Positions 11,326 through 57,609 of a stretch of 64,000 nt of DNA are shown here, piece after piece; positions within the stretch are counted from its first letter, which is position 1, and each line of letters opens with the position of its first letter. The DNA comes from a virus. The DNA lies in the IMG/VR virus record IMGVR_UViG_3300032245_001322, positions 1 to 64,000 of that record, one strand, 5' to 3'. The notes under the pieces were generated by a model that had not been told where the DNA came from, did not search any database, and saw only the letters and a program-made list of their open reading frames with translations. The translations under genes were made by a program, and so were the position numbers.

Positions 11326-11997
11326 ATGGAAAACACGGACAACATAGTAACAGTAGCATTAGGTATTCCAACAATTAACAGGAATGATTTATTACAAGAA
11401 GCACTTGAAGTTTACAAAGATACTTGGTATGGTAGGAATGTATTTATCGTAGATAACGGAAACCAAGCAATACAAACCAAATCGGCTAACCAACGTGTAA
11501 TGGTTATGCCCAAAAATTTGGGTGTTGCAGGTTCTTGGAATTTATTGGCAAAAGTTGCAAGGAATAAAGGATATTCTCACATCGCACTTTTAAACGATGA
11601 TATTGTTTGGAAAAAAAATGCTGACGAAATTGAAGAATTTATCAAAAACCATCCTGCCGACTTTTATCAAGGGACGGGTACTTGGTGTTGTTTTGTAATG
11701 CCGATTGCAACGCTTGAGAAAGTTGGATTGTTTGATGAGATTTTTGTCGGTTCGTACTTTGAAGATAATTCTATGTACTACAGAATGAAGTTGTTAGGTA
11801 TGAAAATTATCGCAGATGTTTTTTTTAATCCCGAAGTTTATCGTAATAGTGCAACTATTGAAAAAGACCCATCATTAAATATGAATTTTGATAGGAATAG
11901 ACAAACATTTATTGAAATGTGGGGTGGAATGCCGATGCAAGAAACGTTTACAATTCCTTTTAATGGAACAAGACCTTATGACCCACCAAGATTTTAA
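11326..11997 (+). CDS. family 2 glycosyltransferase
   Basis: VTVALGIPTINRNDLLQEAL resembles the GT2 N-terminus. ALLNDDIV is a DxD-like motif. Confidence 0.55.
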   Translation: MENTDNIVTVALGIPTINRNDLLQEALEVYKDTWYGRNVFIVDNGNQAIQTKSANQRVMVMPKNLGVAGSWNLLAKVARNKGYSHIALLNDDIVWKKNADEIEEFIKNHPADFYQGTGTWCCFVMPIATLEKVGLFDEIFVGSYFEDNSMYYRMKLLGMKIIADVFFNPEVYRNSATIEKDPSLNMNFDRNRQTFIEMWGGMPMQETFTIPFNGTRPYDPPRF

Positions 11998-12601
11998 AAT
12001 AGACGGCAGAGAATTGCGTTTATTTCCCTTAAATGAAAATTATGGGGTAACTATTGATGGAGATGTTTATTCTTTTAAAAACAAAAAATGGATAAGTAAG
12101 CACATTAATAAAAATGGGTATTTTTTCGTAGGTATAAAAACAAAATGTAAAAAATCCTCTCAATTTTTTTTACATAGAGTTGTATTAATGACTTGGGGTA
12201 ATATGCCTCCCGAAGGTAAAAACGATGTGAATCACATTGATTGTAATAAAATGAATAATCATGTTTCAAATCTTGAATGGAATAGTAGAAAAGAAAATAT
12301 TGCACACGCAGTAAAAAATGGTTTATGGGATGCTCAAAAGAATGCCATTACCGAAAAAAACAAAAAAGATTGGGCTGAAGGCAAGAAGCGTAATGCAGTT
12401 GAAATGGGTGGGCTGAAACGTAAAGAATTTATAGGGGATAAACACGAACAATCAAAAACAATAATCAATATTAAAACAAATGAAATAATTGTTTGTGTTA
12501 GAGTATTGGCAGAAAAATTAAATATGCCATATTCTACTTTGAGGTCTAAACTCAATGGTCGTTCTAAAAACAATACAGAATGGAGATTTTTAAATAAATA
12601 A
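11978..12601 (+). CDS. HNH homing endonuclease (HNH_3 with NUMOD-like tail)
   Basis: HRVVLMTWGNMPPEGKNDVNHIDCNKMNNHVSNLEWNSRKENIAHA. Start trimmed to the ATG at 11978. Confidence 0.7.
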   Translation: MTHQDFKIDGRELRLFPLNENYGVTIDGDVYSFKNKKWISKHINKNGYFFVGIKTKCKKSSQFFLHRVVLMTWGNMPPEGKNDVNHIDCNKMNNHVSNLEWNSRKENIAHAVKNGLWDAQKNAITEKNKKDWAEGKKRNAVEMGGLKRKEFIGDKHEQSKTIINIKTNEIIVCVRVLAEKLNMPYSTLRSKLNGRSKNNTEWRFLNK

Positions 12602-14386: not shown

Positions 14387-15328
14387 ATGGACAACACGAA
14401 AAAAGCATTAGTTATTGGAGCGACAGGAATGGATGGTTCACTTATGGTGGACTTATTGCTTTCCAAGGGATATTTTGTTTACGCTACTTTTTATAGCAAA
14501 GGCAATTTAAAAGAGCACGAAAATTTAAAGTGGTTCTTTTTTGATTTGTCTGATGAGAATTTAGTCTTTTCGCTTTTATCAATTCACGTTCACGAGAGTA
14601 TTGACGAGGTTTATAATTTTGGTGGCGTTTCTTTTAGCCCCGACTCTATTCGAATGCCAAGTTATACCATGGACGTAAACTATAGAAGTGTCATGAGATT
14701 ATTGGCTTGGGTTGAATATAAGAAATGTAAATTCTTTCAAGCGAGTAGTAGTGAAGTTTTTGGCAAGGTTAAAAATTTAACTTTAAATGAAAATTCACCG
14801 AGAAACCCACATACACCTTACGCTCACGCTAAAAATCTTGTAGATATGATGTTAAGGTATATGAGAGAGCAAGGATACCCCGTTTATAACGCAATATCTT
14901 TTAATCATGAATGCAATCTTAGAGGTGAACAATTCGTAACCAAAAAAATTACAAAGTTTGTTGCTGATATTGTAAATCACAAAAGAGTAGGAAAACTCAA
15001 ATTGGGAAACATACATAGTAAAAGGGATTGGGGTTATGCCCCCGACTTTATTGAGGGTTACTATAAAATGGTGCAAGGAGAACCTCGAGAACTTATATTT
15101 GCAACTGCTCAAACTCATTCTGTTCTTGATATTTTGAATATCGCATTTTCAAGTCAAGGATTAAATTGGGAAGATTATGTTTCGATTGATTCAGAATTAG
15201 TTCGTGAAGATGAAAGAGATAACTTATTGGGCGATTATTCAAAGGCTTGGCAAACTATTCAATGGTGTCCCAAAAAGCATTTTGATGAAATGATAATTGA
15301 AATGGTTGAATTAGAAAAAAATAAATAA
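14387..15328 (+). CDS. gmd: GDP-mannose 4,6-dehydratase
   Basis: Matches Gmd motifs: ALVIGATGMDGS...LLSKGY, DEVYNFG, FFQASSSEVFG, YAHAK, SFNHECNLRGEQFVTKKIT, LGNIHSKRDWGYAPDF. Confidence 0.85.
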   Translation: MDNTKKALVIGATGMDGSLMVDLLLSKGYFVYATFYSKGNLKEHENLKWFFFDLSDENLVFSLLSIHVHESIDEVYNFGGVSFSPDSIRMPSYTMDVNYRSVMRLLAWVEYKKCKFFQASSSEVFGKVKNLTLNENSPRNPHTPYAHAKNLVDMMLRYMREQGYPVYNAISFNHECNLRGEQFVTKKITKFVADIVNHKRVGKLKLGNIHSKRDWGYAPDFIEGYYKMVQGEPRELIFATAQTHSVLDILNIAFSSQGLNWEDYVSIDSELVREDERDNLLGDYSKAWQTIQWCPKKHFDEMIIEMVELEKNK

Positions 15329-15375: not shown

Positions 15376-15936
15376 ATGAAGTTGTTTTTCTTTGATTTAG
15401 AAACCACAGGAGTGCGTTTTTGGAAAAATGGTATTCATCAAATATCGGGGAAAATTGTAATTGATGGAGAGTTGAAAGAGAGATTTGATTTTAAAGTACA
15501 ACCTTATAAGGATGCTTTAATAGAACAAGAAGCCTTGGATATAGCGAAAATAACCAAAGATGATTTATTAACTTATGAACCAATGATTTCGGTTTATTCT
15601 AAATTGCTTTCAATGTTAGGTAAGTATGTTGATAAATTTAATAAAAACGATAAATTTCATTTGGTTGGTTACAATAACGCTTCTTTTGATAATCAATTTT
15701 TTAGGGCATTTTTTACACAAATGGGTGATAATTATTTTGGTAGTTGGTTTTGGTCTGATTCTATTGACGTTATGGTTTTGGCTTCTCATTATTTAAAAAA
15801 TGAAAGGTCAAAATTGACAAACTTCAAACTTTCAAGCGTAGCAAAACATTTAGGGATTAAAGTAGTAGAAGATGATTTGCATGATGCTCAATATGATATT
15901 GATTTAACAGAGAAAATTTATAATATAGTAGGATGA
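15376..15936 (+). CDS. DEDD-family 3'-5' exonuclease (DnaQ-like)
   Basis: Exo I FFDLETTG, Exo II GYNNASFDNQFF, Exo III HDAQYD. Track start 15346 is TTG; ATG at 15376. Confidence 0.7.
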   Translation: MKLFFFDLETTGVRFWKNGIHQISGKIVIDGELKERFDFKVQPYKDALIEQEALDIAKITKDDLLTYEPMISVYSKLLSMLGKYVDKFNKNDKFHLVGYNNASFDNQFFRAFFTQMGDNYFGSWFWSDSIDVMVLASHYLKNERSKLTNFKLSSVAKHLGIKVVEDDLHDAQYDIDLTEKIYNIVG

Positions 15937-16553
15937 TACACAGTTATAGTCAATTTGGTGAAGATAAAATCTTGCAAGATTTCTTCGAATCGGGATACAA
16001 GGGAGTTTGTATTGATGTAGGTGCAACAGATGGTATTGGACAAAGTAATACTTATCATTTCGAAAAACATGGTTGGATGTGTATTTGTTGTGAAGCAAAT
16101 CCCGATATGTACGAGAATTTAAAAATGAATCGCCACAATGCAGTACATTGTGCAGTTGGTAGCGAAGATAAGTTAGAAGTAGAATTTAACGTAGTTACTT
16201 TAACTGCTCAAGGTGGAAATCAAACGGCTATTAGTGGTTTGCAAATAGACCAAAGGTTATATAATGACCATTTGTTTTTGCAACCCGAAGTTAAAAAAAT
16301 TAATGTGCCAATGATGACTTTAAATACTATTCTTAAAAAGTATCCTGCTATCGACAAGATTGATTTTTTATCAATTGATACCGAAGGTACTGAAGTAGAT
16401 GTTATGAAAGGATTTGATATTGCCAGATGGATGCCGAAAGTAGTTGTATTAGAAAACAATTATGACGACAAACATTATGTAGATTACATGGATAGTGTAG
16501 GATACAAAAGAGTTTTAAGAAATGTAGTTAATGATTTTTATATAAAAAAATGA
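15933..16553 (+). CDS. FkbM-family SAM methyltransferase
   Basis: SQFGEDKIL...CIDVGATDG...ANPDMYENL...FLSIDTEGTEVDVMKG pattern of Methyltransf_21. Confidence 0.7.
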   Translation: MIHSYSQFGEDKILQDFFESGYKGVCIDVGATDGIGQSNTYHFEKHGWMCICCEANPDMYENLKMNRHNAVHCAVGSEDKLEVEFNVVTLTAQGGNQTAISGLQIDQRLYNDHLFLQPEVKKINVPMMTLNTILKKYPAIDKIDFLSIDTEGTEVDVMKGFDIARWMPKVVVLENNYDDKHYVDYMDSVGYKRVLRNVVNDFYIKK

Positions 16554-17773
16554 AACACGGAGAAGAAATTTTAGATTTAGGCGAACACTTTGTTAGTGCA
16601 TTTACAGATACGTTCGAAGAAGCGTTTGAAGGGCAGAAATACCCCTTAAAATTAGTTTATGATGAAAACTTGGGATGTCCCGTACTTACAGAACAACCAC
16701 CATTTGATTTAATGTGGGGTAAATATTGGTATCATAGTGGAATCAATGGTAAAATGGTAAAAGATTTAAAAAAAGTAGTTGACAATATTGATGAACTCAT
16801 TTTACCACAAACAGGTGATGTTTGGTTGGATATTGCATCAAATGATGGTACTTTATTAAATTTTGTTAAAAACGAGTACGTTAAGGTGGGGTGCGACCCT
16901 GTTGAAGGATTCATTGCAGAATCATGTAAGCATAGAAGTAATATTTTTATCAATGATTATTTTACGGCTGAAAAATACTTACAAAATGTAACTAAAAAAG
17001 CAAAAGTTATTACTTGTTGTGCAATGTTTTACGACCTTCAAGACCCTATGTCGTTTTTAAATGATGTTAGAGAAATTTTAGATGAAGATGGAATATTTGT
17101 TTTCCAATTCACCTACACACCAAGTATGTTAATGATGGGCGATTTTATGAATATTTGTCACGAACATTATGCTTATCATTCATTTACGAATGTTGCAGGT
17201 ATGTTAGTTCAAAATAAATTTAGCGTTTTTAATGCCGAAATAAATGATGTTAATGGTGGTTCTATTAGAATATATTGTAGAAAAAGTTATAGTCATTCAT
17301 TTTTACCACCATCAAAATATGTGGTAGGAATTGTAAATATGTATGCTTTGCAAACTTTTGAAAAGACTGAAATTTCTTGGGAAACTTTTAAAAAGCATAT
17401 CAATCTTAGCAAAATGAAGTTAGTTGATTATGTTAGAGAAGCCAATAAACAAGGATTATCTGTTTGGGGTTATGGTGCATCTACAAAAGCAAATACTTTA
17501 TTGCAATACTATGAATTGGACTTTGAAGATATTACCAAAATTGCTGAAGCGAACACCGATAAATATGGTAAATTCACAAAAGGTAGTGGAATAGAAATTT
17601 GTAGCGAAGAAGAATGGAGAGAAGCAAAACCAAATCTTACTGTTGTTTTTCCTTTTCAATTTATTGATTATTTTGTAGAAAGAGAAAAAGATTACCTACA
17701 AAATGGAGGTACATTTTTAGTGCCTTGCCCCGAACCTCATTTGATTACAAAACATGGAGTAACGAACTTATGA
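16550..17773 (+). CDS. class I SAM methyltransferase with C-methyltransferase-like C-terminal domain
   Basis: Motif I LDIASNDGTLL. C-terminal VWGYGASTKANTLLQYY...DTDKYGKFTKGSGIEI. Confidence 0.55.
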   Translation: MKHGEEILDLGEHFVSAFTDTFEEAFEGQKYPLKLVYDENLGCPVLTEQPPFDLMWGKYWYHSGINGKMVKDLKKVVDNIDELILPQTGDVWLDIASNDGTLLNFVKNEYVKVGCDPVEGFIAESCKHRSNIFINDYFTAEKYLQNVTKKAKVITCCAMFYDLQDPMSFLNDVREILDEDGIFVFQFTYTPSMLMMGDFMNICHEHYAYHSFTNVAGMLVQNKFSVFNAEINDVNGGSIRIYCRKSYSHSFLPPSKYVVGIVNMYALQTFEKTEISWETFKKHINLSKMKLVDYVREANKQGLSVWGYGASTKANTLLQYYELDFEDITKIAEANTDKYGKFTKGSGIEICSEEEWREAKPNLTVVFPFQFIDYFVEREKDYLQNGGTFLVPCPEPHLITKHGVTNL

Positions 17774-18024
17774 AAAAAACTATTGGACAACTAATTGACG
17801 AACTTTCGATTGTAAACATCAAAATTTGGATGGCTGAAGATATTAAACGTGACCCGTCTGCAACTGATAAACAGATTGCAGACGCTACACGAAAAACAAA
17901 TATTGCCAATCAACAACGGAATGATTTAATCCAAGCGATTGACGAAGAAATGAATTTAATTGCACAAGGAAAGAAACAAAAGTTATACGACCAAGGAAGC
18001 ACTAAAATGTATGGAAAAGGTTAG
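17770..18024 (+). CDS. hypothetical small protein
   Basis: ATG overlapping upstream TGA; track start 17725 lies inside the previous gene. Confidence 0.4.
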   Translation: MKKTIGQLIDELSIVNIKIWMAEDIKRDPSATDKQIADATRKTNIANQQRNDLIQAIDEEMNLIAQGKKQKLYDQGSTKMYGKG

Positions 18025-18733
18025 TGTACTTATAAGTGGAAAGTTGGGTGATTTAATTCATTCATTATACGTTTGCAAAGTTTTATTTAAGCATTTCAAT
18101 AAAAAGTCTGTTATCTACATGACCGATAGTGTAGAGCCGTTTGAAAATGGTTTAAAAAATACTTATATGGAGTTGTATGAGTTTATTAAAATGCAATCTT
18201 TTTGTGAAGATTTTAAAATTTGGAATGGTGAGCCAATAGAAGCCAATACCACTCTATTCAGACGCTCGAATTTGTTATATAAAAATTGTTGGAGAGAAAT
18301 TTTTAACGAAACATTCAATACTTCAATATTGACGGGGGCTTGGCTCGATTACCATAACCCCAAAATAAAACAAAATACTTTGGTTATTGCAAGACGTTAT
18401 AAAACACCGATGAGCGACAATACAAAAATTATTTATTTGAAGTATATCGAGCAATTTGAAAAGATTGTTTTTTTAGGTTCAAAACACGACTACGACCTTT
18501 TTGATTTAAAGCATTACTGCAAATTAGTAACGCCTTTAACTATTGACGATTGGCTCATAAATATCAAAACAAGTGGTTATTTTATTGGCAATCAAAGTAG
18601 CCCTTTAGCGATGGCTTTAGCATTAGATGTCAATGTTTTAGCAGAGTTGTTCCCAAGAACTATTATTGATTATATTCACTATGTAGGTGAAGAAAAATAT
18701 AGTCAAAAGTTCAATTATTTTTTGAATGAATAA
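18011..18733 (+). CDS. GT9-like glycosyltransferase (heptosyltransferase-like)
   Basis: C-terminal YFIGNQSSPLAMALALDVNVLAEL resembles the GT9 GNDSGPMHLAAAL motif. Track start 17960 is TTG; ATG at 18011. Confidence 0.45.
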   Translation: MEKVSVLISGKLGDLIHSLYVCKVLFKHFNKKSVIYMTDSVEPFENGLKNTYMELYEFIKMQSFCEDFKIWNGEPIEANTTLFRRSNLLYKNCWREIFNETFNTSILTGAWLDYHNPKIKQNTLVIARRYKTPMSDNTKIIYLKYIEQFEKIVFLGSKHDYDLFDLKHYCKLVTPLTIDDWLINIKTSGYFIGNQSSPLAMALALDVNVLAELFPRTIIDYIHYVGEEKYSQKFNYFLNE

Positions 18734-18766
18734 TATTATTCTCTATAATAAAATTATATTTGCACT

Positions 18767-19084
18767 ATGAGTGAACAAGAAAAAATTAAATTAGAATATT
18801 TACATCAATATTCAGTTACCGAACACCCTCAAATTAAGGGAGTAAAAGTTTTAGTAAAAGACGGATTACCTGCTAAATGTCACAAATGTGCCCCAATACC
18901 TACTCAGAATATGGCTAATCAAATAGTTATGTCCTATGAGTTGTGTGGCACTAATTGTACAAAGTTGCAAGTGGCAAAAGAAGGCGAGAACGTTGTGGCT
19001 ATTCAGACTTGCGAGGTTCAAGCCATGAAATTTTTAGTTGGTAAATATGAAACAAAGCCTAAACTTGAAATACAAAGAAGTTAA
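18767..19084 (+). CDS. hypothetical Cys-rich protein
   Basis: ATG 5 nt after TATATTTG. Cysteines in CHKC...CGTNC...C pattern. Confidence 0.5.
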   Translation: MSEQEKIKLEYLHQYSVTEHPQIKGVKVLVKDGLPAKCHKCAPIPTQNMANQIVMSYELCGTNCTKLQVAKEGENVVAIQTCEVQAMKFLVGKYETKPKLEIQRS

Positions 19085-19206
19085 GCGTTTAATTATTTGT
19101 TCAAGGGGTGCAACCATTGGCGAAAATTTAAAAAATAAAAGTGTTGCCACCCTTAATGAATACGCACGTTTGAACGAAACAACTATTGACGAAATTTTTA
19201 AAAAAT

Positions 19207-21786
19207 ATGACGAAAGAATTGGACAAAAAAGACACTAAAAGAATATTGTGCTTTATGGATTTTATGTGCCCTACGGGATTTGGTACTGTAGCACACAATA
19301 TTTTAGATAGATTAACACCTTGGTTTAAAAAAATGAACATTGAGGTAGATGTATGTGCATTAAATTACGGAGACAACCCTCATACGAAGTATAACGAGCA
19401 AATAATGGTGCTCAATCCTAAGTTTTTTGCAAGAAACAAAGATGATTTTTATTGGAGGGATGGTGTTTTAAAGATTTTGCAGATAGGAGAATATGATTTG
19501 TTTTTCCCTATGAATGATATTCCCGTTATTAGCCCGATGGGTCGCCATTTACAAGCGTTAAAGGAAGATAAAATTTTTAAAAATAAAAAGCCCTTCAAGA
19601 CCTTATTTTACACGCCAATTGACTCGCAACCATATAGAAGATATTTTAAAGATTTAGAGTTTTTTGATACACTTGTAACATATACAGAATATGGTAAAAA
19701 AGAAATACTTGATGCTTACAAAGTAGTAAGCCCAAATAAAAAAATCAATGTAGAAATTATTAACCATGGTATTGATAGAAAAAACTTCAAACCAATGTCT
19801 AATAAGAGTGAGTTGCGTAAAAAGTATAATATGCCCGAAAATGCATTCATTTGGGGCAACGTAAACAAAAATCAACCCCGAAAGGATATAGGAACTACAC
19901 TTATTGCTTTTAAGTACTTTAAAGAATGGCTAAAAGAGAATCACCCTAACGAGAAAAGTGTTTTGTATTTGCATTGTTATCATTCGGACAATACAGGTAT
20001 CAATTTATATGTAGCCCTTGAAAGACTTGGTTTAACTATTGGCGAAGATGTAATACTTCCTTTAGAAGATAAGTATGTAAGCAATAATTACACTACTCAA
20101 GAGATGAATGAAGTTTTTAATTGTTTTGACGTATTTGTAAATACAACTATGGCAGAAGGTTGGGGGCTTTGTTTAGAATCAAATACCTTAGTTGAAACAA
20201 ATAATGGATTAAAGAAGATTAAAGATTTGCATTTATTTAAAGAAACGCAAGACAAGGTTTTAACTAATGATGGAGAGTTTCATAAAATATTAGATTTTAC
20301 AAGTAGAGATGTAAATGAATATTATATTTTAAATTCAGAATATAATATGGAAGTTTCCGTAACGCCAGAGCATCCATTTTTTGTCACTGATGGAATTTCA
20401 GAGCCATATTGGGCAAATGTTAAGGAATTGATAAATAAGCCAAATATGTACGTTGCAATGCGAAAACCAAAATTAATTAATGTTACGGATTCTAATATTT
20501 TATTAAGATTGGAAAATGAATTGAGTGATTATCAAGAAGATTTTTATTATGAAAATGAATTTGCTTTTTGCAAATATGGGTATTCCCCTTTTAATAAAAA
20601 ATGGAGTATTTCTTCAATAATGAAAAGATATAATGTCACTAAACATACTGTAGAACGTGCTATATTGAAAATAACCAATAATAGATTGTCTAATAATCCA
20701 AATGTTATAGATTTATGTAATAAACTAATTGAAGATGGATTTGAGAAAAACGAACCTATAAAATGCAAATCTAAAATTATAGTAGATGCAGATTTAGCCG
20801 AAGTTTTTGGATGGTATTTAGCCGAAGGCTCAAATGAGAATAGCAATAGAATAGAATTTTCTTTTAATGGAAATTTAATAAATAGTAAAGCAGTTTTTAT
20901 TAAAAACATTTTAGAAAATAAATTTGGATTAAAGTGCGTAATTGATAAAAATGGCAAAAATAAATGTAGAGTCAGAGTATCTAACAAAATTTTAGCAACA
21001 TTATTTGGAGAATGTTTTGGTATTCATGCTGAAAATAAAAAAATACCTCATTGGCTTTATTTAAATGGCGAACTAATGAAAAGTGTATTAAAAGGATATA
21101 TTTTAGGAGATGGACATATTAACCAAAGCAAAAATCACATTTCATATACTACTAAAAGCCCTCATTTAGCATTCCAAATAAGAAGTATATTAATGAGTTT
21201 TAATATAATGTCGGCTATTAAAAAATCAAAAAGAGGGTGTTATTATGTAATTTTTACAAATAATTCTCTTCAAAAAGCAAAATCATTTTTAGGTAATGAT
21301 ATGTGTTTTAGAAATGAAAACACTAGGAGACACAAGCCTAAATACATAGAAACATCTACTCACTTTTTTTCAAGAATAAACAATATAGAATTTGTTAAAT
21401 TAAATGAACCTACTAAATTTTACGATATTTGTGTTGAGAATGAACATAGTTTTACGGCAAATGGTATAATCTGTCACAATACAGTTACTGAAGCGATGAG
21501 TGTAGGAATGCCAATTATTTGTGGATTGCATACTTCTATTAATGAAATTACCGACTATGGAAAATTAGTTTATGGAGTTACGGATATGGTTGAACATTTT
21601 CAAATCTCAGATGCTGAAAATATTCGCTTTAAGTTAAATCCAATTGCAGTTAAAGACCAAATGATAAAAGCATTTGAAAATAGAAACAAACCATTTAGCC
21701 CAAATAAGTATAAACATAAATTCGAGGAATACGATTGGGATAAAATTGCAGAACAATTCAAACAACAAATAAAAAAATTGATATAA
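19207..21786 (+). CDS. GT1/GT4-like glycosyltransferase interrupted by an intein
   Basis: Extein junction AEGWGL | TVTEAMSVGMPIICG reconstructs the GT4 EGFGL--EAM-G-P motif. Track start 19186 is TTG; ATG at 19207. Confidence 0.7.
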   Translation: MTKELDKKDTKRILCFMDFMCPTGFGTVAHNILDRLTPWFKKMNIEVDVCALNYGDNPHTKYNEQIMVLNPKFFARNKDDFYWRDGVLKILQIGEYDLFFPMNDIPVISPMGRHLQALKEDKIFKNKKPFKTLFYTPIDSQPYRRYFKDLEFFDTLVTYTEYGKKEILDAYKVVSPNKKINVEIINHGIDRKNFKPMSNKSELRKKYNMPENAFIWGNVNKNQPRKDIGTTLIAFKYFKEWLKENHPNEKSVLYLHCYHSDNTGINLYVALERLGLTIGEDVILPLEDKYVSNNYTTQEMNEVFNCFDVFVNTTMAEGWGLCLESNTLVETNNGLKKIKDLHLFKETQDKVLTNDGEFHKILDFTSRDVNEYYILNSEYNMEVSVTPEHPFFVTDGISEPYWANVKELINKPNMYVAMRKPKLINVTDSNILLRLENELSDYQEDFYYENEFAFCKYGYSPFNKKWSISSIMKRYNVTKHTVERAILKITNNRLSNNPNVIDLCNKLIEDGFEKNEPIKCKSKIIVDADLAEVFGWYLAEGSNENSNRIEFSFNGNLINSKAVFIKNILENKFGLKCVIDKNGKNKCRVRVSNKILATLFGECFGIHAENKKIPHWLYLNGELMKSVLKGYILGDGHINQSKNHISYTTKSPHLAFQIRSILMSFNIMSAIKKSKRGCYYVIFTNNSLQKAKSFLGNDMCFRNENTRRHKPKYIETSTHFFSRINNIEFVKLNEPTKFYDICVENEHSFTANGIICHNTVTEAMSVGMPIICGLHTSINEITDYGKLVYGVTDMVEHFQISDAENIRFKLNPIAVKDQMIKAFENRNKPFSPNKYKHKFEEYDWDKIAEQFKQQIKKLI
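20170..21480 (+). mobile_element. LAGLIDADG-type intein (437 aa) inside the glycosyltransferase gene
   Basis: Starts with Cys (CLESNTLVETNNG, block A). LAGLIDADG-like FGWYLAEGS and LKGYILGDGHI. Ends ICHN with +1 Thr (block G). Confidence 0.75.
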
Positions 21787-21818
21787 TTAAAATTTTAAAA
21801 AGTTAAGGGCAAAAAAAA

Positions 21819-21850
21819 GGCGACAACATCGTTGTCGCACCCTTTCCATT
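21819..21850 (+). terminator. possible terminator hairpin after the GT-intein gene (weak U-tract)
   Basis: GGCGACAAC-ATC-GTTGTCGC, then ACCCTTTCC. Confidence 0.35.
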
Positions 21851-22279
21851 CAGTTAACACAGATTAACTATTTGCAAGAATTACTTCTTGTAAATAATGT
21901 AAGCGAGTGCACCGATAATAATTAGGTTGTGAACGTTGTTACCACCTAAAAATTTGTCTGAATTGATATTTAAGAAATCTCCCATAGTGTTACAAATATA
22001 CTATTGGCAAAAGACTCAAAATTATGCATTGGAATATTTTAGAATTGCATATTTAGTAAGTTATTAGTATAGTTGAATATAAAATTCATGCACAAAATTA
22101 TCTTATTAAATTACATTTGTATTTTACACCAATTTTACAAAGTTTTTTCTAACTATTTTTATCAATTATTGAAAAATTATGTCAAAATGATTTAAAACGC
22201 ATTTTTTATTGACCTCAAATGCTTTGCAAATTCCTTGAAAATAGAATTTAATATCTTATTCTTATATTTGTAATGTATT

Positions 22280-24640
22280 ATGCAAAATATTGATTACGAT
22301 TTAGAATACGATAACGCTATAAAAAAAATGGCGTTAGGTGGAGAGACCTCTGCTTTATTTAAAATAGATACCCCAACGGGTGCTCCCTCTAAATTGACTT
22401 ATATTCAACAATTATTAGTTCGCACTAAATCGTTTAAAGAATGGTTTGGTGATTGGGAAGATTTTGCTAATAAAATTGTACAAAGTAGAAAAGACAAAAG
22501 TCCTTTCTATGAAGTTGAAATTATGATAAAGAAAAATTTTGATAAAGACGACAAAAGCAATGGTAATTTGTCGAAGAATCAAAAATTATTATGGATATAT
22601 TTTGAAAACTTTGATATTAAAAATCTTTCTTATACAATTGACTATGACACTTTAGAACCACAAGCATATTGGCATGGAACTAAATCAGAAGAATTTTTTG
22701 AATTTAAGACTTATGTAAGTCGATTTGGTAGACCATACGCTTATTTTGCAGTTAATAAATCTTATAGTGATTTTTTTAGTGCAAGTGAAGAGCATTTATA
22801 TAGTGTTTTTACTTGTATAAAAAATCCATATATTAATTTTAACTATGAACATCAAAACACACTATCCTTTATATCAGAAATATTTATTGATTATGGTTTA
22901 AAGAATAATTTGGATTCGGCTCAAATAGAAAAATTGGCTAAAGATAAAGAATACGATTATATTAAAAAATATGGTATTTCATTTAGTCAAAGTAAAGATT
23001 ATCCATTTTGGAGATTGATGTCCGATGATAGTATGGGTCAATTCAAAATGTTTTTACAATCATTAGGTTATGACGGAGTTATGTATGTTGAAGAACTTCG
23101 ACTCGATTCCGATATAAGTAAAGAAGATGAATTTACAAGAGCCGTTACAATATTTGAACCTAATCAAGTAAAACTTGCAGATGGCAGGAATACTGAATTT
23201 AGTTCTTTAAGTAACGATATACGTTATGAAAAAGGTGGGTTAATTGCTCCTAATGGCAAGAAAAGTAATTTAACTCCCGAACAATATAAACTTGTTCGTA
23301 CTCCCGAATTTAAAAAATGGTTTGGAGATTGGGAAAATGACCCTAAAAACGCAAGTCAAGTTGTAGACGAAAATGGAGAACCTTTAGTAGTTTATCACGG
23401 GACTTATGCAAAAGAGCCATTTTACACATTTGATTTAGAAAAAGCCGATTTAGGTTTCCATTTTGGGACAAAAGAACAAGCAAAAAATCGCTCTACAACA
23501 AAATTTTTTATAGAGGGGTTTAAATCTTATGTAAGTTCTTATTTTTTAAACATAAAACCTTTATTTGAAGTAAGTGATATTGGAGAATGGGAATACCCTC
23601 AAAGATATATTGATATGTTAATTTCAGACAACATAATTGATGAAAAAATTGCCAAAGAAAAAGGGTTTTTAAGTGCTTATTATAGAGAAGACAATGTAAA
23701 AATTCGAGAATATATAAAATCTAAATATGGCAATTTTGTTGGGTTTATTTACAACAATAAATATGAGGGAGATGGTAAATCATTTATTGTACTTTCCCCT
23801 AATCAAATCAAACTTGCAGACGAAACAAACACAACTTTTGATAATGAAAGTAACGATATAAGATATAAAGAGGGTGGTAATATTGACAATAAAATTGCTT
23901 TTATTACAAAATTTGAAAACAATATTTATTGGTTAATATCTAAAAAAGATGATGATTTTTATTATCAAATAGATGGCGATAGAAGATTATATGTTGTCAA
24001 AGACATGGCTAAAAGATGGGGATATAAGTTAGTTTCTGCAAAAGAATATAATGATTATTATGATGTTCCCGAAAGAATAAGGATGCATGAAAATAAAACA
24101 AAATATGAAAATGGAGGCAAAACAACAACAATGAATAGATATTCTCATTTACACGGAATGTTTGGGCAAGAAACCCCAAAATTTGCCGAAGGTGGTTCAG
24201 TAGCAACTGCACACGGAATTACTAACAATGGTAAAAAAGGTGGTTACTTCGATGGTAGAAGTCACGCTGAAGGTGGTATAAAAGCATGGAATTCAACAAC
24301 TAATTCACCAATAGAAGTAGAAGGGGGAGAAGTTATTATCACTAAAAAAGCCGTTGAAGATGATGAATTATACGAATTTGAAGGCGAAATGCTAACAAAT
24401 AGGCAAATATTATCCAAAATAAATGAAAGTGGTGGAGGTGTTAAGTTTGAAGATGGTGGTGAAATTCATCAATGTAATTGTTCGGGTAAAATGTATAAAT
24501 TTGGGGGCGAAACTATGGAAGATTATCAAATAATGAATAAAATAAATTCAACTTATAATAAAAAACAAGGCATGAAAAACCATAAAACTTCTTACGGGCA
24601 CAACCTTATGAGAAAAATGAAAGAAGGAGGATATTGCTAA
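22280..24640 (+). CDS. large internally duplicated protein (two modules with WFGDWE and Y/W-HGT motifs; C-terminal aromatic-x-GG repeats)
   Basis: FKEWFGDWE...YWHGTKSEE and FKKWFGDWE...VVYHGTYAKE. PNQVKLADGRNTEFSSLSNDIRYEKGG vs PNQIKLADETNTTFDNESNDIRYKEGG. ATG 8 nt after TATATTTG. Confidence 0.6.
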   Translation: MQNIDYDLEYDNAIKKMALGGETSALFKIDTPTGAPSKLTYIQQLLVRTKSFKEWFGDWEDFANKIVQSRKDKSPFYEVEIMIKKNFDKDDKSNGNLSKNQKLLWIYFENFDIKNLSYTIDYDTLEPQAYWHGTKSEEFFEFKTYVSRFGRPYAYFAVNKSYSDFFSASEEHLYSVFTCIKNPYINFNYEHQNTLSFISEIFIDYGLKNNLDSAQIEKLAKDKEYDYIKKYGISFSQSKDYPFWRLMSDDSMGQFKMFLQSLGYDGVMYVEELRLDSDISKEDEFTRAVTIFEPNQVKLADGRNTEFSSLSNDIRYEKGGLIAPNGKKSNLTPEQYKLVRTPEFKKWFGDWENDPKNASQVVDENGEPLVVYHGTYAKEPFYTFDLEKADLGFHFGTKEQAKNRSTTKFFIEGFKSYVSSYFLNIKPLFEVSDIGEWEYPQRYIDMLISDNIIDEKIAKEKGFLSAYYREDNVKIREYIKSKYGNFVGFIYNNKYEGDGKSFIVLSPNQIKLADETNTTFDNESNDIRYKEGGNIDNKIAFITKFENNIYWLISKKDDDFYYQIDGDRRLYVVKDMAKRWGYKLVSAKEYNDYYDVPERIRMHENKTKYENGGKTTTMNRYSHLHGMFGQETPKFAEGGSVATAHGITNNGKKGGYFDGRSHAEGGIKAWNSTTNSPIEVEGGEVIITKKAVEDDELYEFEGEMLTNRQILSKINESGGGVKFEDGGEIHQCNCSGKMYKFGGETMEDYQIMNKINSTYNKKQGMKNHKTSYGHNLMRKMKEGGYC

Positions 24641-25974
24641 TGGCAAAAGAGAAAAAAGACCTCATAATTTTTGGGGAAACGTATAAAAACATTGACGTAA
24701 ATACTTATGGAGGCTCATATACTTTGGATACTACAGGTATTGCTCAAGTGATTAAGCAATATGTTAAAAACAATTATGGAGATATAAAAGTTTGGGCAAA
24801 AAGCAGTTCATATTCTATGGGTTCATCTATAAATATATATTTATGGAATGTTCCAAAAGATTGGGTTAAAAAAATTAATGATTTCGCTCAAAGTTTTGGT
24901 CAATACAATGAATATGATGGAGGTGATGGAATATGGAAGGGTCGTGAAGTAGATGCTCAATTAACCGATGGAACGAAAATTGGAAATTGGTCGCCAATTA
25001 TATTTGTTAATAATACACCACCTTATGGCTCAAAAGAATATGATTTGACACCTCCAAATTACGAAGATATGCCTAAACCTAAGAAAAAAGAATACAAGGG
25101 TAAATTCGAAAAAAAAGGTGCTAAATTTAGTCCAACTGACAACCTTGATTTAATTCTTGATTGTGGGAATGGATGGAAAATTTATGTGGGTAAACCAAAA
25201 GAAAAATATCTTTATAAAGCAGTTAAGGACGAAGCAACAGAACCTAATAGAGAGAAGTGGGCTGAAATTAAATCAGATATGCTTGAAGTAGGTTTTCAAT
25301 GGAATTGGAAGGACGCTACATTTGTTAGATGGACGACTAATGCCGATGATACCATTCCACAAATGGCTTGTGATGTTTTAAGCAAATATTGGGCAGGAGC
25401 GAGTCAACCAAAAGCAGAAAATCCCATAAAGCCACAAGTAGTTATTCCACAATGGACTGAATTCGAATTAATAGAAGATGATGGGAATTTAAAAAAGGGA
25501 GATATAGGTGTTTTATCTAAAGATTATTATCCACCAAATACTTTTGTAGATGTATATATGAATTCTGAAGCAAGACCCGATTATAATTATATTATTCCAT
25601 TTAAAAAGATTAGGGTTATTGAAGAAAGCACAAAAGAAGTTTTGCCATTTTATTTAAACGATACAATACAATTAAAAATGCCTTTTCGGTATAATGTTTC
25701 GTTGTATCCAATAGGATATGTTGGTGTTATTAGTTCTATTGATTATGGTCAAAAAGAAGCCTATATAGATTTTGATGGCAATGGAATTACTATACCCGTG
25801 CCTTTTGAATTTATTGAAAAATATGTATCTAAATCACAAACAAAATTAGAAGTTAATTTAGATGAATATATTAGTGACTTAAATTATCTATTAGAGATGG
25901 AAGCAGATGAATCAAAAAGAATGGAATTGGCTACATATATAAGCGATTTAAATACCTTAAAATTATTAGATTAA
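24640..25974 (+). CDS. hypothetical protein
   Basis: ATG overlapping upstream TAA, preceded by AAGGAGG. Confidence 0.55.
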   Translation: MAKEKKDLIIFGETYKNIDVNTYGGSYTLDTTGIAQVIKQYVKNNYGDIKVWAKSSSYSMGSSINIYLWNVPKDWVKKINDFAQSFGQYNEYDGGDGIWKGREVDAQLTDGTKIGNWSPIIFVNNTPPYGSKEYDLTPPNYEDMPKPKKKEYKGKFEKKGAKFSPTDNLDLILDCGNGWKIYVGKPKEKYLYKAVKDEATEPNREKWAEIKSDMLEVGFQWNWKDATFVRWTTNADDTIPQMACDVLSKYWAGASQPKAENPIKPQVVIPQWTEFELIEDDGNLKKGDIGVLSKDYYPPNTFVDVYMNSEARPDYNYIIPFKKIRVIEESTKEVLPFYLNDTIQLKMPFRYNVSLYPIGYVGVISSIDYGQKEAYIDFDGNGITIPVPFEFIEKYVSKSQTKLEVNLDEYISDLNYLLEMEADESKRMELATYISDLNTLKLLD

Positions 25975-36041: not shown

Positions 36042-37049
36042 ATGGACAACAACGTAGGATTTAACGCTGAAGCAGAATTTGAAAATGACTTTTCACCACT
36101 ACAAGAAAATGTAGTTCAAAGAGATTATACAAGACCGAATGTATCGGGAATGGTAGATTCATCTCCTATTGAAGAAGCAGTCGTTATTCCACCAACTTTT
36201 GAAGATTTGAATAATTCATTTCAACAAAATTTAGGTGGTGCAGAAATGGAAGAACAACCAAGTGGCGATGGTAGAAAAGTTTGGGGCTCTGATGACGAAT
36301 CGGGAAGTGCAAACCCTTACACAGAGAATTTAGATAAAAAAGACCAAAAGAAAGCGTCCGAAGCACTTGTAGAAGCCGTTTTAGATGGCTACACTCAATT
36401 AAATGGTTTTGCTAACAAACTTATTCAATTCAATCCGAATAAGGTTCAGAAAATGATTAGCGAAGGGGAAATTGATGGTGGTTTAAGAATTCCAATTCAA
36501 GGTCAAACTATTGGAGTATTAGATTACATTAATGAATACAATAAACAAACCGAAGGAGTTATTAGTGTAAGTGATGAATTTAAAGACAAGGTAAGACCTG
36601 TAATGGTTCGTGTATTCCAAAAGAGAAATATTGGAATGACAGATGAGCAGTTATTGGCTTATTATTTTGGTGTGGATATTATTCAAAAAGGTGCTATGGT
36701 TTATCAATTAAGAGGTCAAAATGCTCAATTATTGGCACAACTTAAAGATATGAGTACGGGTTACACGCCACCACCACCACAAAGAGAACAAGCAAGGGAA
36801 GAAGCCCCACGCCAAGAACCACAACAAACAAATGAAGCCCCACAAAGGGAATATGTTGAACCCGATGAAGTAAAAAAAGAAAGTCCAAAAGAAGAATTCG
36901 TAGAAGTCGAAGTAGTTAAGGAAACACCTAAACGTGCTAAGAGACCTACAACCATGCCCGAATTTGGAAATGAATCTATTTTACAACACATGGAAGATAT
37001 AGCAAACGAAGGTAAACCAAGAACAAATACAAGAAGGAAAAGAAAATGA
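36042..37049 (+). CDS. hypothetical protein with basic C-terminus
   Basis: Ends KPRTNTRRKRK; Pro/Glu-rich segment. Confidence 0.55.
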   Translation: MDNNVGFNAEAEFENDFSPLQENVVQRDYTRPNVSGMVDSSPIEEAVVIPPTFEDLNNSFQQNLGGAEMEEQPSGDGRKVWGSDDESGSANPYTENLDKKDQKKASEALVEAVLDGYTQLNGFANKLIQFNPNKVQKMISEGEIDGGLRIPIQGQTIGVLDYINEYNKQTEGVISVSDEFKDKVRPVMVRVFQKRNIGMTDEQLLAYYFGVDIIQKGAMVYQLRGQNAQLLAQLKDMSTGYTPPPPQREQAREEAPRQEPQQTNEAPQREYVEPDEVKKESPKEEFVEVEVVKETPKRAKRPTTMPEFGNESILQHMEDIANEGKPRTNTRRKRK

Positions 37050-37861
37050 GAGAAGCAATGCTAGGTGTAGCCGTTGGTAAAAAAGGGGTTGGAAAATCCT
37101 TTACCACCAACAAAATGATTCAATCTTATGTAACGGGGAATTTAGCAAGTGGCATACTTCCCCGAAGGGCTTTGATATTAGATGTTAATGATGAATTTTC
37201 TCACATTAAATCAATTGCAATGAAAGACTTAGTGAGATTTTCTGTACACCCTATTGTTGAAGCAAGAAGAATTAGACCTTTTCATGAGAATGGTAAAAAG
37301 ATGACCTTGGACGATATTGCCAAGACGCTTTTTATCATTCTTGAAACATATAGAGGTGGGTTGTTGTTAATTGAAGATATTAATAAATACATATCAGACG
37401 CTTTACCAAATGACGTTATTGGTGCAATTTGTACAAATAGGCATACGGATATGGACATTATCATGCACTTTCAATCTATTGGACGTATTAGCCCAAAAAT
37501 TTGGCAAAACATGAATTGGATTAGATTCCATAAAAATTTGGATTCAGTTGGTCGTCACGCTAAAAAGTTTGAAGACAAATATGAACTACTTCGAATTGTG
37601 GAAATGTTAACCGATAATGAATACAATAGTGGGAATAAAAGATTCTTCCAATATGTAGATATGGACGAGATGAAAATAGTAGGTAAAATAGATGATAAAA
37701 AACTTGACTTTGCTATTCGTCAATACATAGAAGAAAACTATCGTAAAATAATTACCCCTTTATTACAAATAAAAGGGTCAAATGGTAAAAACAAATACAC
37801 AACTGATAGTGCATTGAAATCTGAATACAATAGAATCAAAAATCTTTACACTAATTCATAA
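37046..37861 (+). CDS. small P-loop ATPase (candidate packaging ATPase of A32/PRD1-P9 type, or ParA-like)
   Basis: Walker A GVAVGKKGVGKS; Walker B-like GGLLLIEDI. 271 aa, directly upstream of putative major structural protein. Confidence 0.5.
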   Translation: MREAMLGVAVGKKGVGKSFTTNKMIQSYVTGNLASGILPRRALILDVNDEFSHIKSIAMKDLVRFSVHPIVEARRIRPFHENGKKMTLDDIAKTLFIILETYRGGLLLIEDINKYISDALPNDVIGAICTNRHTDMDIIMHFQSIGRISPKIWQNMNWIRFHKNLDSVGRHAKKFEDKYELLRIVEMLTDNEYNSGNKRFFQYVDMDEMKIVGKIDDKKLDFAIRQYIEENYRKIITPLLQIKGSNGKNKYTTDSALKSEYNRIKNLYTNS

Positions 37862-55317: not shown

Positions 55318-57609
55318 ATGTTAGTCAACATTATAGGTAATAGCATTTCGTCTAATGCTCAAGCATCGGGCTCTATAACTTATGAACCATTTGTTTTTCA
55401 AGTAACAGTTACAAATGGTCAAACGATAACTTTGCCTTATTATGTTGATGGTGAATATACGGGAAATATAGATTGGGGAGATGGAAATACAAGCGTAAAT
55501 AGTTATGCAAATAGGCAACACACTTATTCCATAGGTTCAAAATATACAATTAGAATACAAGGAAGAGTAAAAAAATTTTCTTTCGTTTCGTTAACGGCAT
55601 CAGAAAGATTATATATCAATGAAATAGTTTCGTGGGGCGATTTTGAGCCAAGTTCTGTTGGAAGTACTTTTATTGGATGTACAAATTTGGATTGTAGAAC
55701 TACAACTGATTATTTAAAAATAAAATCAGATACGAACTTAACCTCTTTTTTTCAAGATTGCAATCAAACAATTTTTACTTCAATTAATAATTTAACATTG
55801 TGGGATTTAAACAATTTAGTTTTATACAAAACATTGTCAAAAATGTTTTTAAATTGTTTATATTTTAATCAAAGCATAAATTCTTGGGATGTATCAAATA
55901 TTACAAATATGTCATATTTATTTGCATCAACTATTGCAGGTTATCATTCATTTAATCAAAGTTTAAGCAATTGGAATGTTTCAAATGTTACTGACATGAG
56001 TTTCATGTTCACGGCAAGTTCTTTTAATCAACCTTTAAGCACATGGAATGTTTCAAATGTTACTACGATGCAATCAATGTTTCAAGCATCAAATGCATTT
56101 TCGCAAAATTTAAGTAATTGGAATGTTTCCAATGTTACAACATTCCAAGAAATGTTTGCACTAAGTGTATTTAATTCAGCAATAAATTGGACTATGGGTG
56201 GTAACTCAACTATAAATGTTAGTTTATACTTGATGTTTAGTGAAAATATAAACTTTAATCAACCAATAAATTCTTGGAATACTTCAAGAGTTACTAATTT
56301 AAACAATACATTTGGTAGAACTTTAAATTTTAATCAAGCATTAAATTTGTGGAATACATCCTTGGTTACTGATATGAATGGGACTTTTCGAGGTACAAGT
56401 GCAGTAAATAAATCAATTTTCAATCAAGATATTAGTTCATGGAATACATCAAATGTTTTGGATATGACACAAATGTTTGATTATAGCAATTTTAACAATG
56501 GTGGTGCAAGTTTAAATAGTTGGAATACTTCAAAAGTAACATCAATGTCAACAATGTTTAGAAATACTCCATTTAATCAAAATATTACTTCTTGGAATAC
56601 ATCAAATGTTACTACGATGCAACGTATGTTTCTCAATGCAACTTCATTTAATCAAAATGTTGGTGGGTGGGATGTATCAAAAGTTACAACGATGTCAGAA
56701 ATGTTTAGTGGAGCAAGTGCATTCAATAACGCAAGTAATTCATCAATAGGTTCTTGGAATGTTGGGTTAGTTACCAATATGTCTTCTATGTTTTCAAGTA
56801 GTCCTTTTAATCAAAACATAGGGTCTTGGAATACATCAAATGTTACTACAATGGCTTCAATGTTTGCAACGGCAACTTCATTTAATCAAAATATTGGTGG
56901 GTGGGATACATCAAAAGTTACGACAATGGCTTCAATGTTTAATGGGGCAACAGCATTCAATAACGCAAGTAATTCATCAATAGGTTCTTGGAATGTTGGG
57001 TTAGTTACGACAATTCAAACAATGTTTAGGAGTTCTGCATTTAATCAACCTATTGGAAGTTGGAATGTTTTAAACGTGACTAATATGAATGGTACATTTC
57101 AAACAAATACTGCATTCAATCAAAGTTTAAGTTCTTGGAATGTAGGGAAAGTTACTACATTCCAAAATTGTTTTAGTGGAGCAACTGCTTTTAATCAAAA
57201 TATTGGTTCATGGAATGTTTCTTCTTGTACCATTTTTTCTAATATGTTTACGTCTGCAACATCCTTCAATAATGGTGGGTCAAATACAATAAATAATTGG
57301 TCATTAAATACTTCTACATCAATAACGATAGCAATGCAATCTATGTTTCAAAGTGCAACTGCTTTTAATCAACCAATTAATAATTGGGTAATATCAAGAG
57401 TTAATAATTTTACCAATTTTATGGCAAATAAAACTAACTTAAATTATTCAGCATCTAATCTTGACGCTATTTATAACACTTGGTCAACAATATCAAGAAT
57501 AGCATCATTATCAATTAGTTTCGGGACAATAAAATATACTGCTGGGGGTTCGGCAGGAAGGGCTATATTAGTGGCAACACCATGGACAATAACTGACGGA
57601 GGAATATAA
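55318..57609 (+). CDS. DUF285 (BspA-like) repeat protein, candidate receptor-binding/adhesin
   Basis: About 20 repeats of FNQ-I--WNVSNVT-M--MF; intragenic near-identical duplications. Confidence 0.65.
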   Translation: MLVNIIGNSISSNAQASGSITYEPFVFQVTVTNGQTITLPYYVDGEYTGNIDWGDGNTSVNSYANRQHTYSIGSKYTIRIQGRVKKFSFVSLTASERLYINEIVSWGDFEPSSVGSTFIGCTNLDCRTTTDYLKIKSDTNLTSFFQDCNQTIFTSINNLTLWDLNNLVLYKTLSKMFLNCLYFNQSINSWDVSNITNMSYLFASTIAGYHSFNQSLSNWNVSNVTDMSFMFTASSFNQPLSTWNVSNVTTMQSMFQASNAFSQNLSNWNVSNVTTFQEMFALSVFNSAINWTMGGNSTINVSLYLMFSENINFNQPINSWNTSRVTNLNNTFGRTLNFNQALNLWNTSLVTDMNGTFRGTSAVNKSIFNQDISSWNTSNVLDMTQMFDYSNFNNGGASLNSWNTSKVTSMSTMFRNTPFNQNITSWNTSNVTTMQRMFLNATSFNQNVGGWDVSKVTTMSEMFSGASAFNNASNSSIGSWNVGLVTNMSSMFSSSPFNQNIGSWNTSNVTTMASMFATATSFNQNIGGWDTSKVTTMASMFNGATAFNNASNSSIGSWNVGLVTTIQTMFRSSAFNQPIGSWNVLNVTNMNGTFQTNTAFNQSLSSWNVGKVTTFQNCFSGATAFNQNIGSWNVSSCTIFSNMFTSATSFNNGGSNTINNWSLNTSTSITIAMQSMFQSATAFNQPINNWVISRVNNFTNFMANKTNLNYSASNLDAIYNTWSTISRIASLSISFGTIKYTAGGSAGRAILVATPWTITDGGI
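56630..57045 (+). repeat. intragenic near-identical direct duplication (~180 nt units about 235 nt apart) in the DUF285 gene
   Basis: GCATTCAATAACGCAAGTAATTCATCAATAGGTTCTTGGAATGTTGGGTTAGTTAC at ~56718 and ~56953. TTTAATCAAAATATTGGTGGGTGGGAT at ~56646 and ~56883. Confidence 0.65.

Follow-up and report, generated by a model that had tools for sequence, protein, structure and literature searches.

A 64,000-nt stretch of viral DNA (positions 1 to 64,000 of IMG/VR record IMGVR_UViG_3300032245_001322, hereafter the window) encodes a glycosyltransferase whose reading frame is interrupted by a long insert. Very probably, a class-1 intein equipped with a two-motif LAGLIDADG homing endonuclease has invaded the GT4-like glycosyltransferase gene of this phage-like virus, and we infer that the element splices and that its endonuclease cleaves DNA. 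The precursor is encoded on the plus strand by an open reading frame (ORF) at 19186–21786 that has a TTG start, 866 aa and a stop codon at 21784–21786. Since the homologous proteins P0001 and P0002 begin near an in-frame ATG at 19207, this ATG is more likely than the TTG to be the start of the glycosyltransferase precursor, which would then have 859 aa. The original prediction, made by inspection of the sequence, had described a 437-aa insert in the 866-aa ORF that starts with Cys, ends in ICHN before a Thr and contains two LAGLIDADG motifs. All of these features were recovered at the exact coordinates claimed: the insert spans aa 329–765 of the 866-aa ORF (nt 20170–21480), its first residues are CLESNTLVETNNG, its last residues are ICHN, and Thr follows.

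Several profiles recognise the insert within the intact ORF. Pfam Intein_splicing (PF14890) scored 43.1 bits (range 43–45 bits; cutoff 35.8) and the NCBIfam model for the intein C-terminus, TIGR01443 intein_Cterm, scored 24.8 (cutoff 15.6). Splicing-block models are thus matched above their curated thresholds, which removes one ground on which the intein call could have been dismissed. We aligned 14 allelic inteins sharing 30–96% identity. The N-terminal splicing (Hint) region of the window's copy (20170–20469, +) contains block A with Cys1 and block B with T65-P-E-H68 (nt 20362–20373), and the C-terminal splicing region (21382–21480, +), where TIGR01443 matches, contains block F, FYDICVENEHSF, with Asp419, and block G, ANGIICHN, with His436-Asn437. 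Cys1, Thr65-x-x-His68, Asp419, His436-Asn437 and a Thr or Ser at position +1 are kept in 14/14 alleles. A class-3 intein was considered and ruled out, because Cys1 is present and position 4 of block F is Asp, not Cys. By these sequence hallmarks, all of which are present, the insert is confirmed as a class-1 intein. Searching the 64-kb window with a hidden Markov model (HMM) built from the allelic inteins revealed no further intein.

The central part of the insert (20785–21294, +) corresponds to a LAGLIDADG homing-endonuclease domain. LAGLIDADG_3 (PF14528) scored 47.1 bits on the intact ORF (range 47–49; cutoff 22.5) and LAGLIDADG_2 (PF03161) scored 27.9 bits (range 28–30; cutoff 25), and matches at the level of the fold agree with these assignments. 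Motif 1, FGWYLAEGS (nt 20806–20832, +), contains the predicted catalytic residue E219, and motif 2, LKGYILGDGHI (nt 21088–21120, +), has D314 in the equivalent role. In both motifs the terminal acidic residue and the glycine after it (E219-G220 and D314-G315) are invariant across the 14 alleles. These data support the prediction that the insert carries a monomeric, two-motif LAGLIDADG enzyme. Between the Hint region and the endonuclease lies an intervening stretch of about 105 aa (aa ~101–205; 20470–20784, +), for which AlphaFold2 secondary structure predicts a three-helix segment and in which K135, S139, P140, W145, S146 and Y154 are conserved in the same alignment. We regard it as a putative extra DNA-recognition module.

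Structure prediction gave a consistent picture for both parts of the precursor. The whole protein was modelled with AlphaFold2 from a 29-sequence alignment (mean pLDDT 83.4) and compared with the Protein Data Bank (PDB) using Foldseek. The insert part matched the TliVMA and PhoVMA inteins (1e-17 to 1e-12), PI-PkoII and PI-SceI, whereas the extein part matched retaining GT-B enzymes: the chlorovirus NY2A protein B736L (3oy2), MshA, BshA, PimB', GlgM and OtsA. Among proteins of solved structure, PI-PkoII is closest to the insert in sequence (3e-11).

The identity of the host protein becomes apparent only when the insert is taken out. The intact ORF fails the glycosyltransferase models of Pfam, Glyco_trans_1_4 reaching 14.4 against a cutoff of 27. 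After in silico removal of the insert, Glycos_transf_1 (PF00534) scored 32.6 (cutoff 26.4) and Glyco_trans_1_4 (PF13692) scored 32.0 (cutoff 27), bearing out the proposal that the flanks are glycosyltransferase sequence. Such an enzyme would be overlooked by annotation pipelines unless the intein is removed beforehand. The spliced extein also matched the phrog_2170 glycosyltransferase over its full length (1e-31), and its best solved sequence relative is NY2A B736L (2e-7). Together with a conserved Arg-Lys pair (R225, K226), these matches support a GT4-like retaining glycosyltransferase with a GT-B fold, for which retention and glycosyl transfer are predicted.

The insertion point lies within the E-x7-E signature of this enzyme, in the arrangement E-GWGL, intein, TVT-E. 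The N-terminal Rossmann domain of the GT-B fold and the beginning of its C-terminal domain make up the N-extein (321 aa; 19207–20169, +), which ends ...NTTMAEGWGL, with the first Glu of the signature at nt 20155–20157. The C-extein (101 aa; 21481–21783, +) starts with Thr+1 (TVTEAMSVGMPIICG...) and holds the second Glu at nt 21490–21492. Even with intein-free homologues included, conservation is 90% or more at E317, G318, W319, G320, L321 and T759, and complete at E762. Since the Thr is thus conserved in proteins without an intein, the +1 nucleophile is evidently the native Thr of the host enzyme.

Comparison with homologues indicates that the region is an insertion and not a native domain. 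A large protein search retrieved intein-bearing homologues of 25–96% identity, with the intein at the window's site in P0001–P0010, P0031–P0033 and P0046, and six residues upstream of it in P0047. Many intein-free homologues of 613 aa, in which a GT2 domain is fused to GT4, read TTTAEGWGLTVTEAM without interruption. The junction ...AEGWGL|TVTEAM..., which the original prediction had derived by removing the insert, is read straight through in intein-free homologues. The most informative of these is encoded by contig L007 (IMGVR_UViG_3300009183_000101), a 429-aa uninterrupted glycosyltransferase reading ...NTTMAEGWGL|TIVEAMGAGLPIICG..., with GGTTGGGGATTA|ACTATAGTTGAAGCC as its junction DNA. Gene order around it is as in the window, with a 240-aa ORF upstream and an ART-PolyVal protein downstream. 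In blastn alignments, window positions 17768–20165 correspond to L007 2562–4959 at 91.3% and window positions 21489–23866 to L007 4972–7342 at 87.8%. What is left unmatched between the adjacent L007 segments is exactly the 1311-nt intein (20170–21480, +; Cys1 to Asn437).

Because homologues, including this syntenic orthologue at ~91% DNA identity, lack the insert, it does not qualify as a native domain. We therefore reject, as next to impossible, the explanation that it is an accessory domain of a glycosyltransferase lineage, an assembly chimera or a pseudogene. The sole point in its favour is that the ORF is continuous. Against it stand the clean indel, the hundreds of uninterrupted homologues, the occurrence of the same architecture in independent ENA, JGI and Logan assemblies, the presence of all intein catalytic residues and strong purifying selection on the exteins.

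The arrangement suggests how the element would operate. Translation would yield the 859-aa precursor with its nucleotide-sugar-binding E-x7-E loop split, so the enzyme should be inactive before splicing. Splicing would start with an N–S acyl shift at Cys1, aided by Thr65 and His68 of block B, and proceed through attack by the Thr+1 hydroxyl, cyclisation of Asn437 aided by His436 and Asp419 of block F, and an O–N shift. The predicted products are a 422-aa glycosyltransferase with the junction peptide ...AEGWGLTVTEAM... and a free 437-aa endonuclease. During co-infection this endonuclease would cleave the conserved site GCAGAAGGTTGGGG...|AC...GAAGC in alleles that lack the intein, after which the intein would be copied into the cut allele by recombinational repair (homing).

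The expected inactivity of the precursor, with the insertion inside the active-site loop, could also mean that the element has been recruited as a conditional post-translational switch, for instance through redox- or stage-dependent splicing that times the glycosyltransferase during infection. Cys1, Cys421 and Cys435 are conserved among close alleles, and in related glycosyltransferases several active-site motifs have likewise been hit by inteins. However, conserved active-site motifs are where a selfish homing element would be expected, more distant alleles have V, L, A or S in place of Cys435, and the 74 intein-free loci among the 80 described below indicate that the enzyme can do without an intein. 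We consider such a switch very improbable.

Signs of mobility were sought in the divergence of the intein and its host. The sister contig L005 (encoding P0001) is ~96% identical to the window genome-wide. Between the two, synonymous divergence (dS) amounts to 0.27 for the N-extein and 0.25 for the C-extein, but only 0.029 for the intein. This is an approximately nine-fold lower dS in the intein (7 synonymous differences versus about 52; Fisher p = 2e-11), which argues that the intein DNA is much younger than the host gene. The ratio of non-synonymous to synonymous divergence (dN/dS) of the exteins is 0.03–0.08. In intein-bearing genomes, such values point to purifying selection and imply productive splicing. 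Intein and extein similarities are also discordant among relatives: for P0008 and P0009 the similarity is 57% in the extein and 70% in the intein, and for P0008 and P0032 it is 68% and 45%. The intein diverges faster than the extein among close hosts but is more conserved than the extein among distant ones. Finally, the 33 nt around the junction carry 13 differences between the window and L007 on a background of 9% (p = 4e-6, corrected 1e-4). Such a hyper-divergent junction would fit donor flanks having been co-converted, or else target-site escape. The putative target GCAGAAGGTTGGGG is identical at the DNA level in L001, so it is conserved even in distant empty alleles. Altogether, these population signatures are consistent with mobility of the intein by putative homing.

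A short way upstream of the intein, a separate patch at window positions 20035–20118 shows 22 differences in 84 nt relative to L005. Window, L005 and L007 all differ from one another there (identity 75–85%), and the patch could encode a variable loop or mark a recombination breakpoint.

Several observations weigh against the reading of an active, mobile class-1 intein. The model for the intein N-terminus, TIGR01445 intein_Nterm, scored 22.2 bits, slightly under its cutoff of 24.5. Identity between the window and L005 averages 95.8% and ranges from 92.5% to 98.7% in sliding windows of 1311 nt, and a region at ~24.1–25.9 kb is as similar to L005 as the intein is (98.7%). Given this equally similar region, ordinary mosaic recombination may contribute to the low divergence of the intein. 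Low divergence as proof of homing was accordingly weakened by this control region. In addition, dN/dS of the intein between the window and L005 is about 0.59 and rises to ~0.88 in the endonuclease part, with 18 non-synonymous and 7 synonymous changes. With a value of ~0.88, the endonuclease of the window's copy may be under relaxed constraint, though the substitutions are few.

The endonuclease dN/dS and the equally similar region, together with the presence of the intein in every one of the closest homologues (P0001–P0010, identity 37% or higher), would also be explained if the intein still splices but its endonuclease is inactive, so that the element is a fixed vertical passenger late in the homing cycle and its low divergence reflects ordinary phage recombination. 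We think this rather unlikely, given that the catalytic acidic residues and motif glycines remain invariant in alleles down to 30% identity, that an orthologue about 91% identical in DNA lacks the intein, and that the intein and extein similarities are discordant and the junction hyper-divergent.

Occupancy of the site is sporadic, which is a further sign of mobility: among the best 80 of 259 IMG/VR contigs encoding a relative, an intein occupies the window's site in six loci (L013, L021, L022, L066, L073 and L057, the last cut by the contig end). For a recent donor, an intein-only search of a 5.8-billion-protein set gave only six new proteins. Inteins outside the glycosyltransferase alleles, in a DNA methylase and other hosts, are only about 25% identical, and no recent donor from another host protein can therefore be named. 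The nearest inteins outside the glycosyltransferase family, P0055 and P0057, are 23–27% identical; one lies beside a DDD motif of its host protein, which may be a GT-A type transferase, and the other is in a C5 DNA methyltransferase (PF00145).

We then asked how often the combination occurs, using a profile search of 1.84 billion 50%-identity cluster representatives and classifying the best 150 matches. In forty, an intein interrupts a glycosyltransferase at the same G[WF]G[LMV]|C...HN|[TSC] junction, the residue at +1 being Thr in 19, Ser in 15 and Cys in 6 of these representatives. Twenty more combine a glycosyltransferase with an intein outside this strict pattern; most have it at the same profile position, and some have it at other sites or contain two inteins (P0072, P0165, P0179, P0202). 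Plain glycosyltransferases account for 57 matches. The remaining 33 fall below the glycosyltransferase criterion and include multi-intein proteins of 3,000–4,900 aa as well as fragments, one of which (P0054) itself has an EGWGL|C junction. With at least 40 intein-bearing 50%-identity clusters at this one site, the combination is widespread in environmental viral sequence.

Insertion sites other than the window's were seen directly before NRNQ-x-RK (site 1 of P0045 and the second glycosyltransferase of L081), after GIPAIH (P0058) and after FGMPW (the second glycosyltransferase of L075). Related glycosyltransferases with two inteins or with other sites are L081:4330–6513, L075:5078–6886, P0045, P0072, P0165 and P0202; the sites among them are before the NRNQ-x-RK / TERKHP motif, after FGMPW, after GIPAIH and six residues upstream of EGWG. 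The L081 intein ends in FCGN, without the penultimate His. A group of metagenome proteins of ~2,600–4,900 aa (P0088, P0096, P0101, P0114, P0122, P0124, P0134, P0154 and P0200) have the intein profile in 5–11 separate stretches and appear to be giant multi-intein proteins. Automatic annotation at JGI names some of the intein-bearing glycosyltransferases 'intein/homing endonuclease/glycosyltransferase'.

Taken over all glycosyltransferase relatives, at least five distinct insertion sites were seen, each of them at or near a sugar-nucleotide-binding motif, and some genes contain two inteins. A more far-reaching proposal is that the glycosyltransferase genes of a large group of uncultured phages are an intein hot spot, so far undescribed, in which inteins are more than selfish elements and gate enzyme activity by conditional splicing, or mediate exclusion between co-infecting phages at a locus that sets virion or host-surface glycosylation. 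We regard this as improbable.

In mechanism and structure the element is ordinary, a class-1 LAGLIDADG intein, and the host protein is the unusual part. InBase listed archaeal inteins in sugar-nucleotide enzymes, for example UDP-glucose dehydrogenase and GlmS. The archaeal and yeast inteins of solved structure, PI-PkoII (2cw7), TliVMA/PhoVMA (7qsu, 7qss, 7qst) and PI-SceI (1vde, 1jva), likewise have a Hint domain interrupted by a two-motif LAGLIDADG enzyme, with Cys1, TxxH, the block F Asp and a C-terminal His-Asn. The window's intein matches their folds with E = 1e-17 to 1e-10 at only 12–18% identity. They differ in that their hosts are DNA polymerase or V-ATPase, whereas that of the window is a glycosyltransferase of a metagenomic phage with Thr at +1, and in that aa ~101–205 of the window's intein have no assigned counterpart in the solved structures. 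On the host side, NY2A B736L, MshA, BshA, PimB' and GlgM resemble the extein in the Glycos_transf_1 match, the E-x7-E signature, the Arg-Lys pair and the GT-B fold. The extein, however, is at most 17% identical to any solved enzyme, and the characterised enzymes all lack an intein.

Phage-borne inteins have been surveyed in mycobacteriophages and other actinobacteriophages (PMC5050341; bioRxiv 10.1101/2025.01.02.630785), where they resemble the window's element in residing at active-site motifs, in their sporadic distribution and in being thought to spread during co-infection. Every mycobacteriophage intein host that has GO terms is reported to bind nucleic acid (PMC5050341), and the survey of prokaryotic inteins stresses DNA- and ATP-binding exteins (PMC4760082). 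The word 'glycosyl' is absent from the text of both phage surveys. In the literature searched, including the prokaryotic (without the supplementary tables of PMC4760082), eukaryotic, mycobacteriophage and actinophage surveys, we found no description of an intein in a GT4/GT-B or phage glycosyltransferase.

The sole precedent of an intein within a glycosyltransferase in this literature is the fungal chitin synthase (CHS), whose inteins are listed in the eukaryotic survey (PMC5784728). Chitin synthase belongs to GT2 and is a membrane-bound processive synthase of GT-A fold encoded in a eukaryotic nuclear genome, in contrast to the soluble GT-B, GT4-like enzyme of a phage considered here. We found no sequence relationship of the CHS inteins to the window's intein family. 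The suggestion that a glycosyltransferase is a very unusual intein host is therefore upheld against published surveys, but it has to be tempered by the chitin synthase precedent and by the abundance of clusters with an intein at this site.

The window is AT-rich (~30% G+C). It contains the phage-type genes Phg_2220_C, an ART-PolyVal polyvalent protein and an AAA_5 ATPase, has close relatives in IMG/VR and comes from a phage-like viral genome. The glycosyltransferase stands at the end of a sugar-modification cluster comprising a GT2 gene (11326–11997, +), a GDP-mannose-4,6-dehydratase/epimerase-like enzyme (14387–15328), an FkbM methyltransferase (15933–16553) and a sugar C-methyltransferase-like protein (16550–17773). 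These neighbours suggest that the cluster makes a modified sugar and transfers it onto virion or host-surface targets, as predicted from gene content. A megablast of window positions 17000–25000 against 50,697 phage records gave no match, and hence there is no cultured close relative in this set. When the spliced extein was compared with phages by tblastn, all matches were distant glycosyltransferases that lack an interruption, for example those of S-CBS4, TJE1 and S-EIVl. No relative of the precursor was found in 185,579 species genomes, which therefore offer no clue to the host and no prophage copy.

Other features of the window were noted in passing. An HNH_3 endonuclease ORF (11888–12601, +; PF13392, 27.6 bits) overlaps the 3' end of the GT2 gene and would be the cluster's second mobile-endonuclease-type gene beside a sugar-transferase gene. 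In the syntenic contig L004, no HNH gene follows GT2. The downstream ART-PolyVal gene (ADP-ribosyltransferase of polyvalent proteins) encodes 786 aa in the window (22280–24640, +) and 967 aa in L007 (5762–8665), and the internal difference of ~180 aa represents a second indel polymorphism beside the glycosyltransferase. A 763-aa protein at 55318–57609 (+) is built of seven DUF285 repeats (PF03382, 476 bits), which take their name from Mycoplasma surface proteins; a large repeat protein of this kind is unusual in a phage-like genome. The ORFs at 36042–37049 and 37046–37861 (+) abut, and the second has weak matches to the C-terminal part of a terminase large subunit (phrog_2666, 1.5e-4) and to a HerA-type ATPase, so that 36042–37861 may be a split or frameshifted packaging ATPase. 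Two tRNA genes, tRNA-Leu(AAG) at 8–82 and tRNA-Met(CAT) at 1929–2000, lie on the minus strand at the left end. Near 8 kb and 49 kb, the sign of the GC skew and the orientation of the genes switch together.

Collectively, our results extend the extein repertoire, in which surveys have stressed nucleic acid and ATP binders, to nucleotide-sugar-binding GT-B enzymes of phages. They conform to the rule by which inteins occupy the best-conserved ligand-binding loops, in this case the E-x7-E signature. The family is large, uses several sites and supplies new inteins with Thr, Ser or Cys at +1, for which splicing is predicted. Natural intein-plus/intein-minus pairs at ~91% DNA identity, such as the window and L007, would make a convenient system for homing and co-conversion in wild phages.

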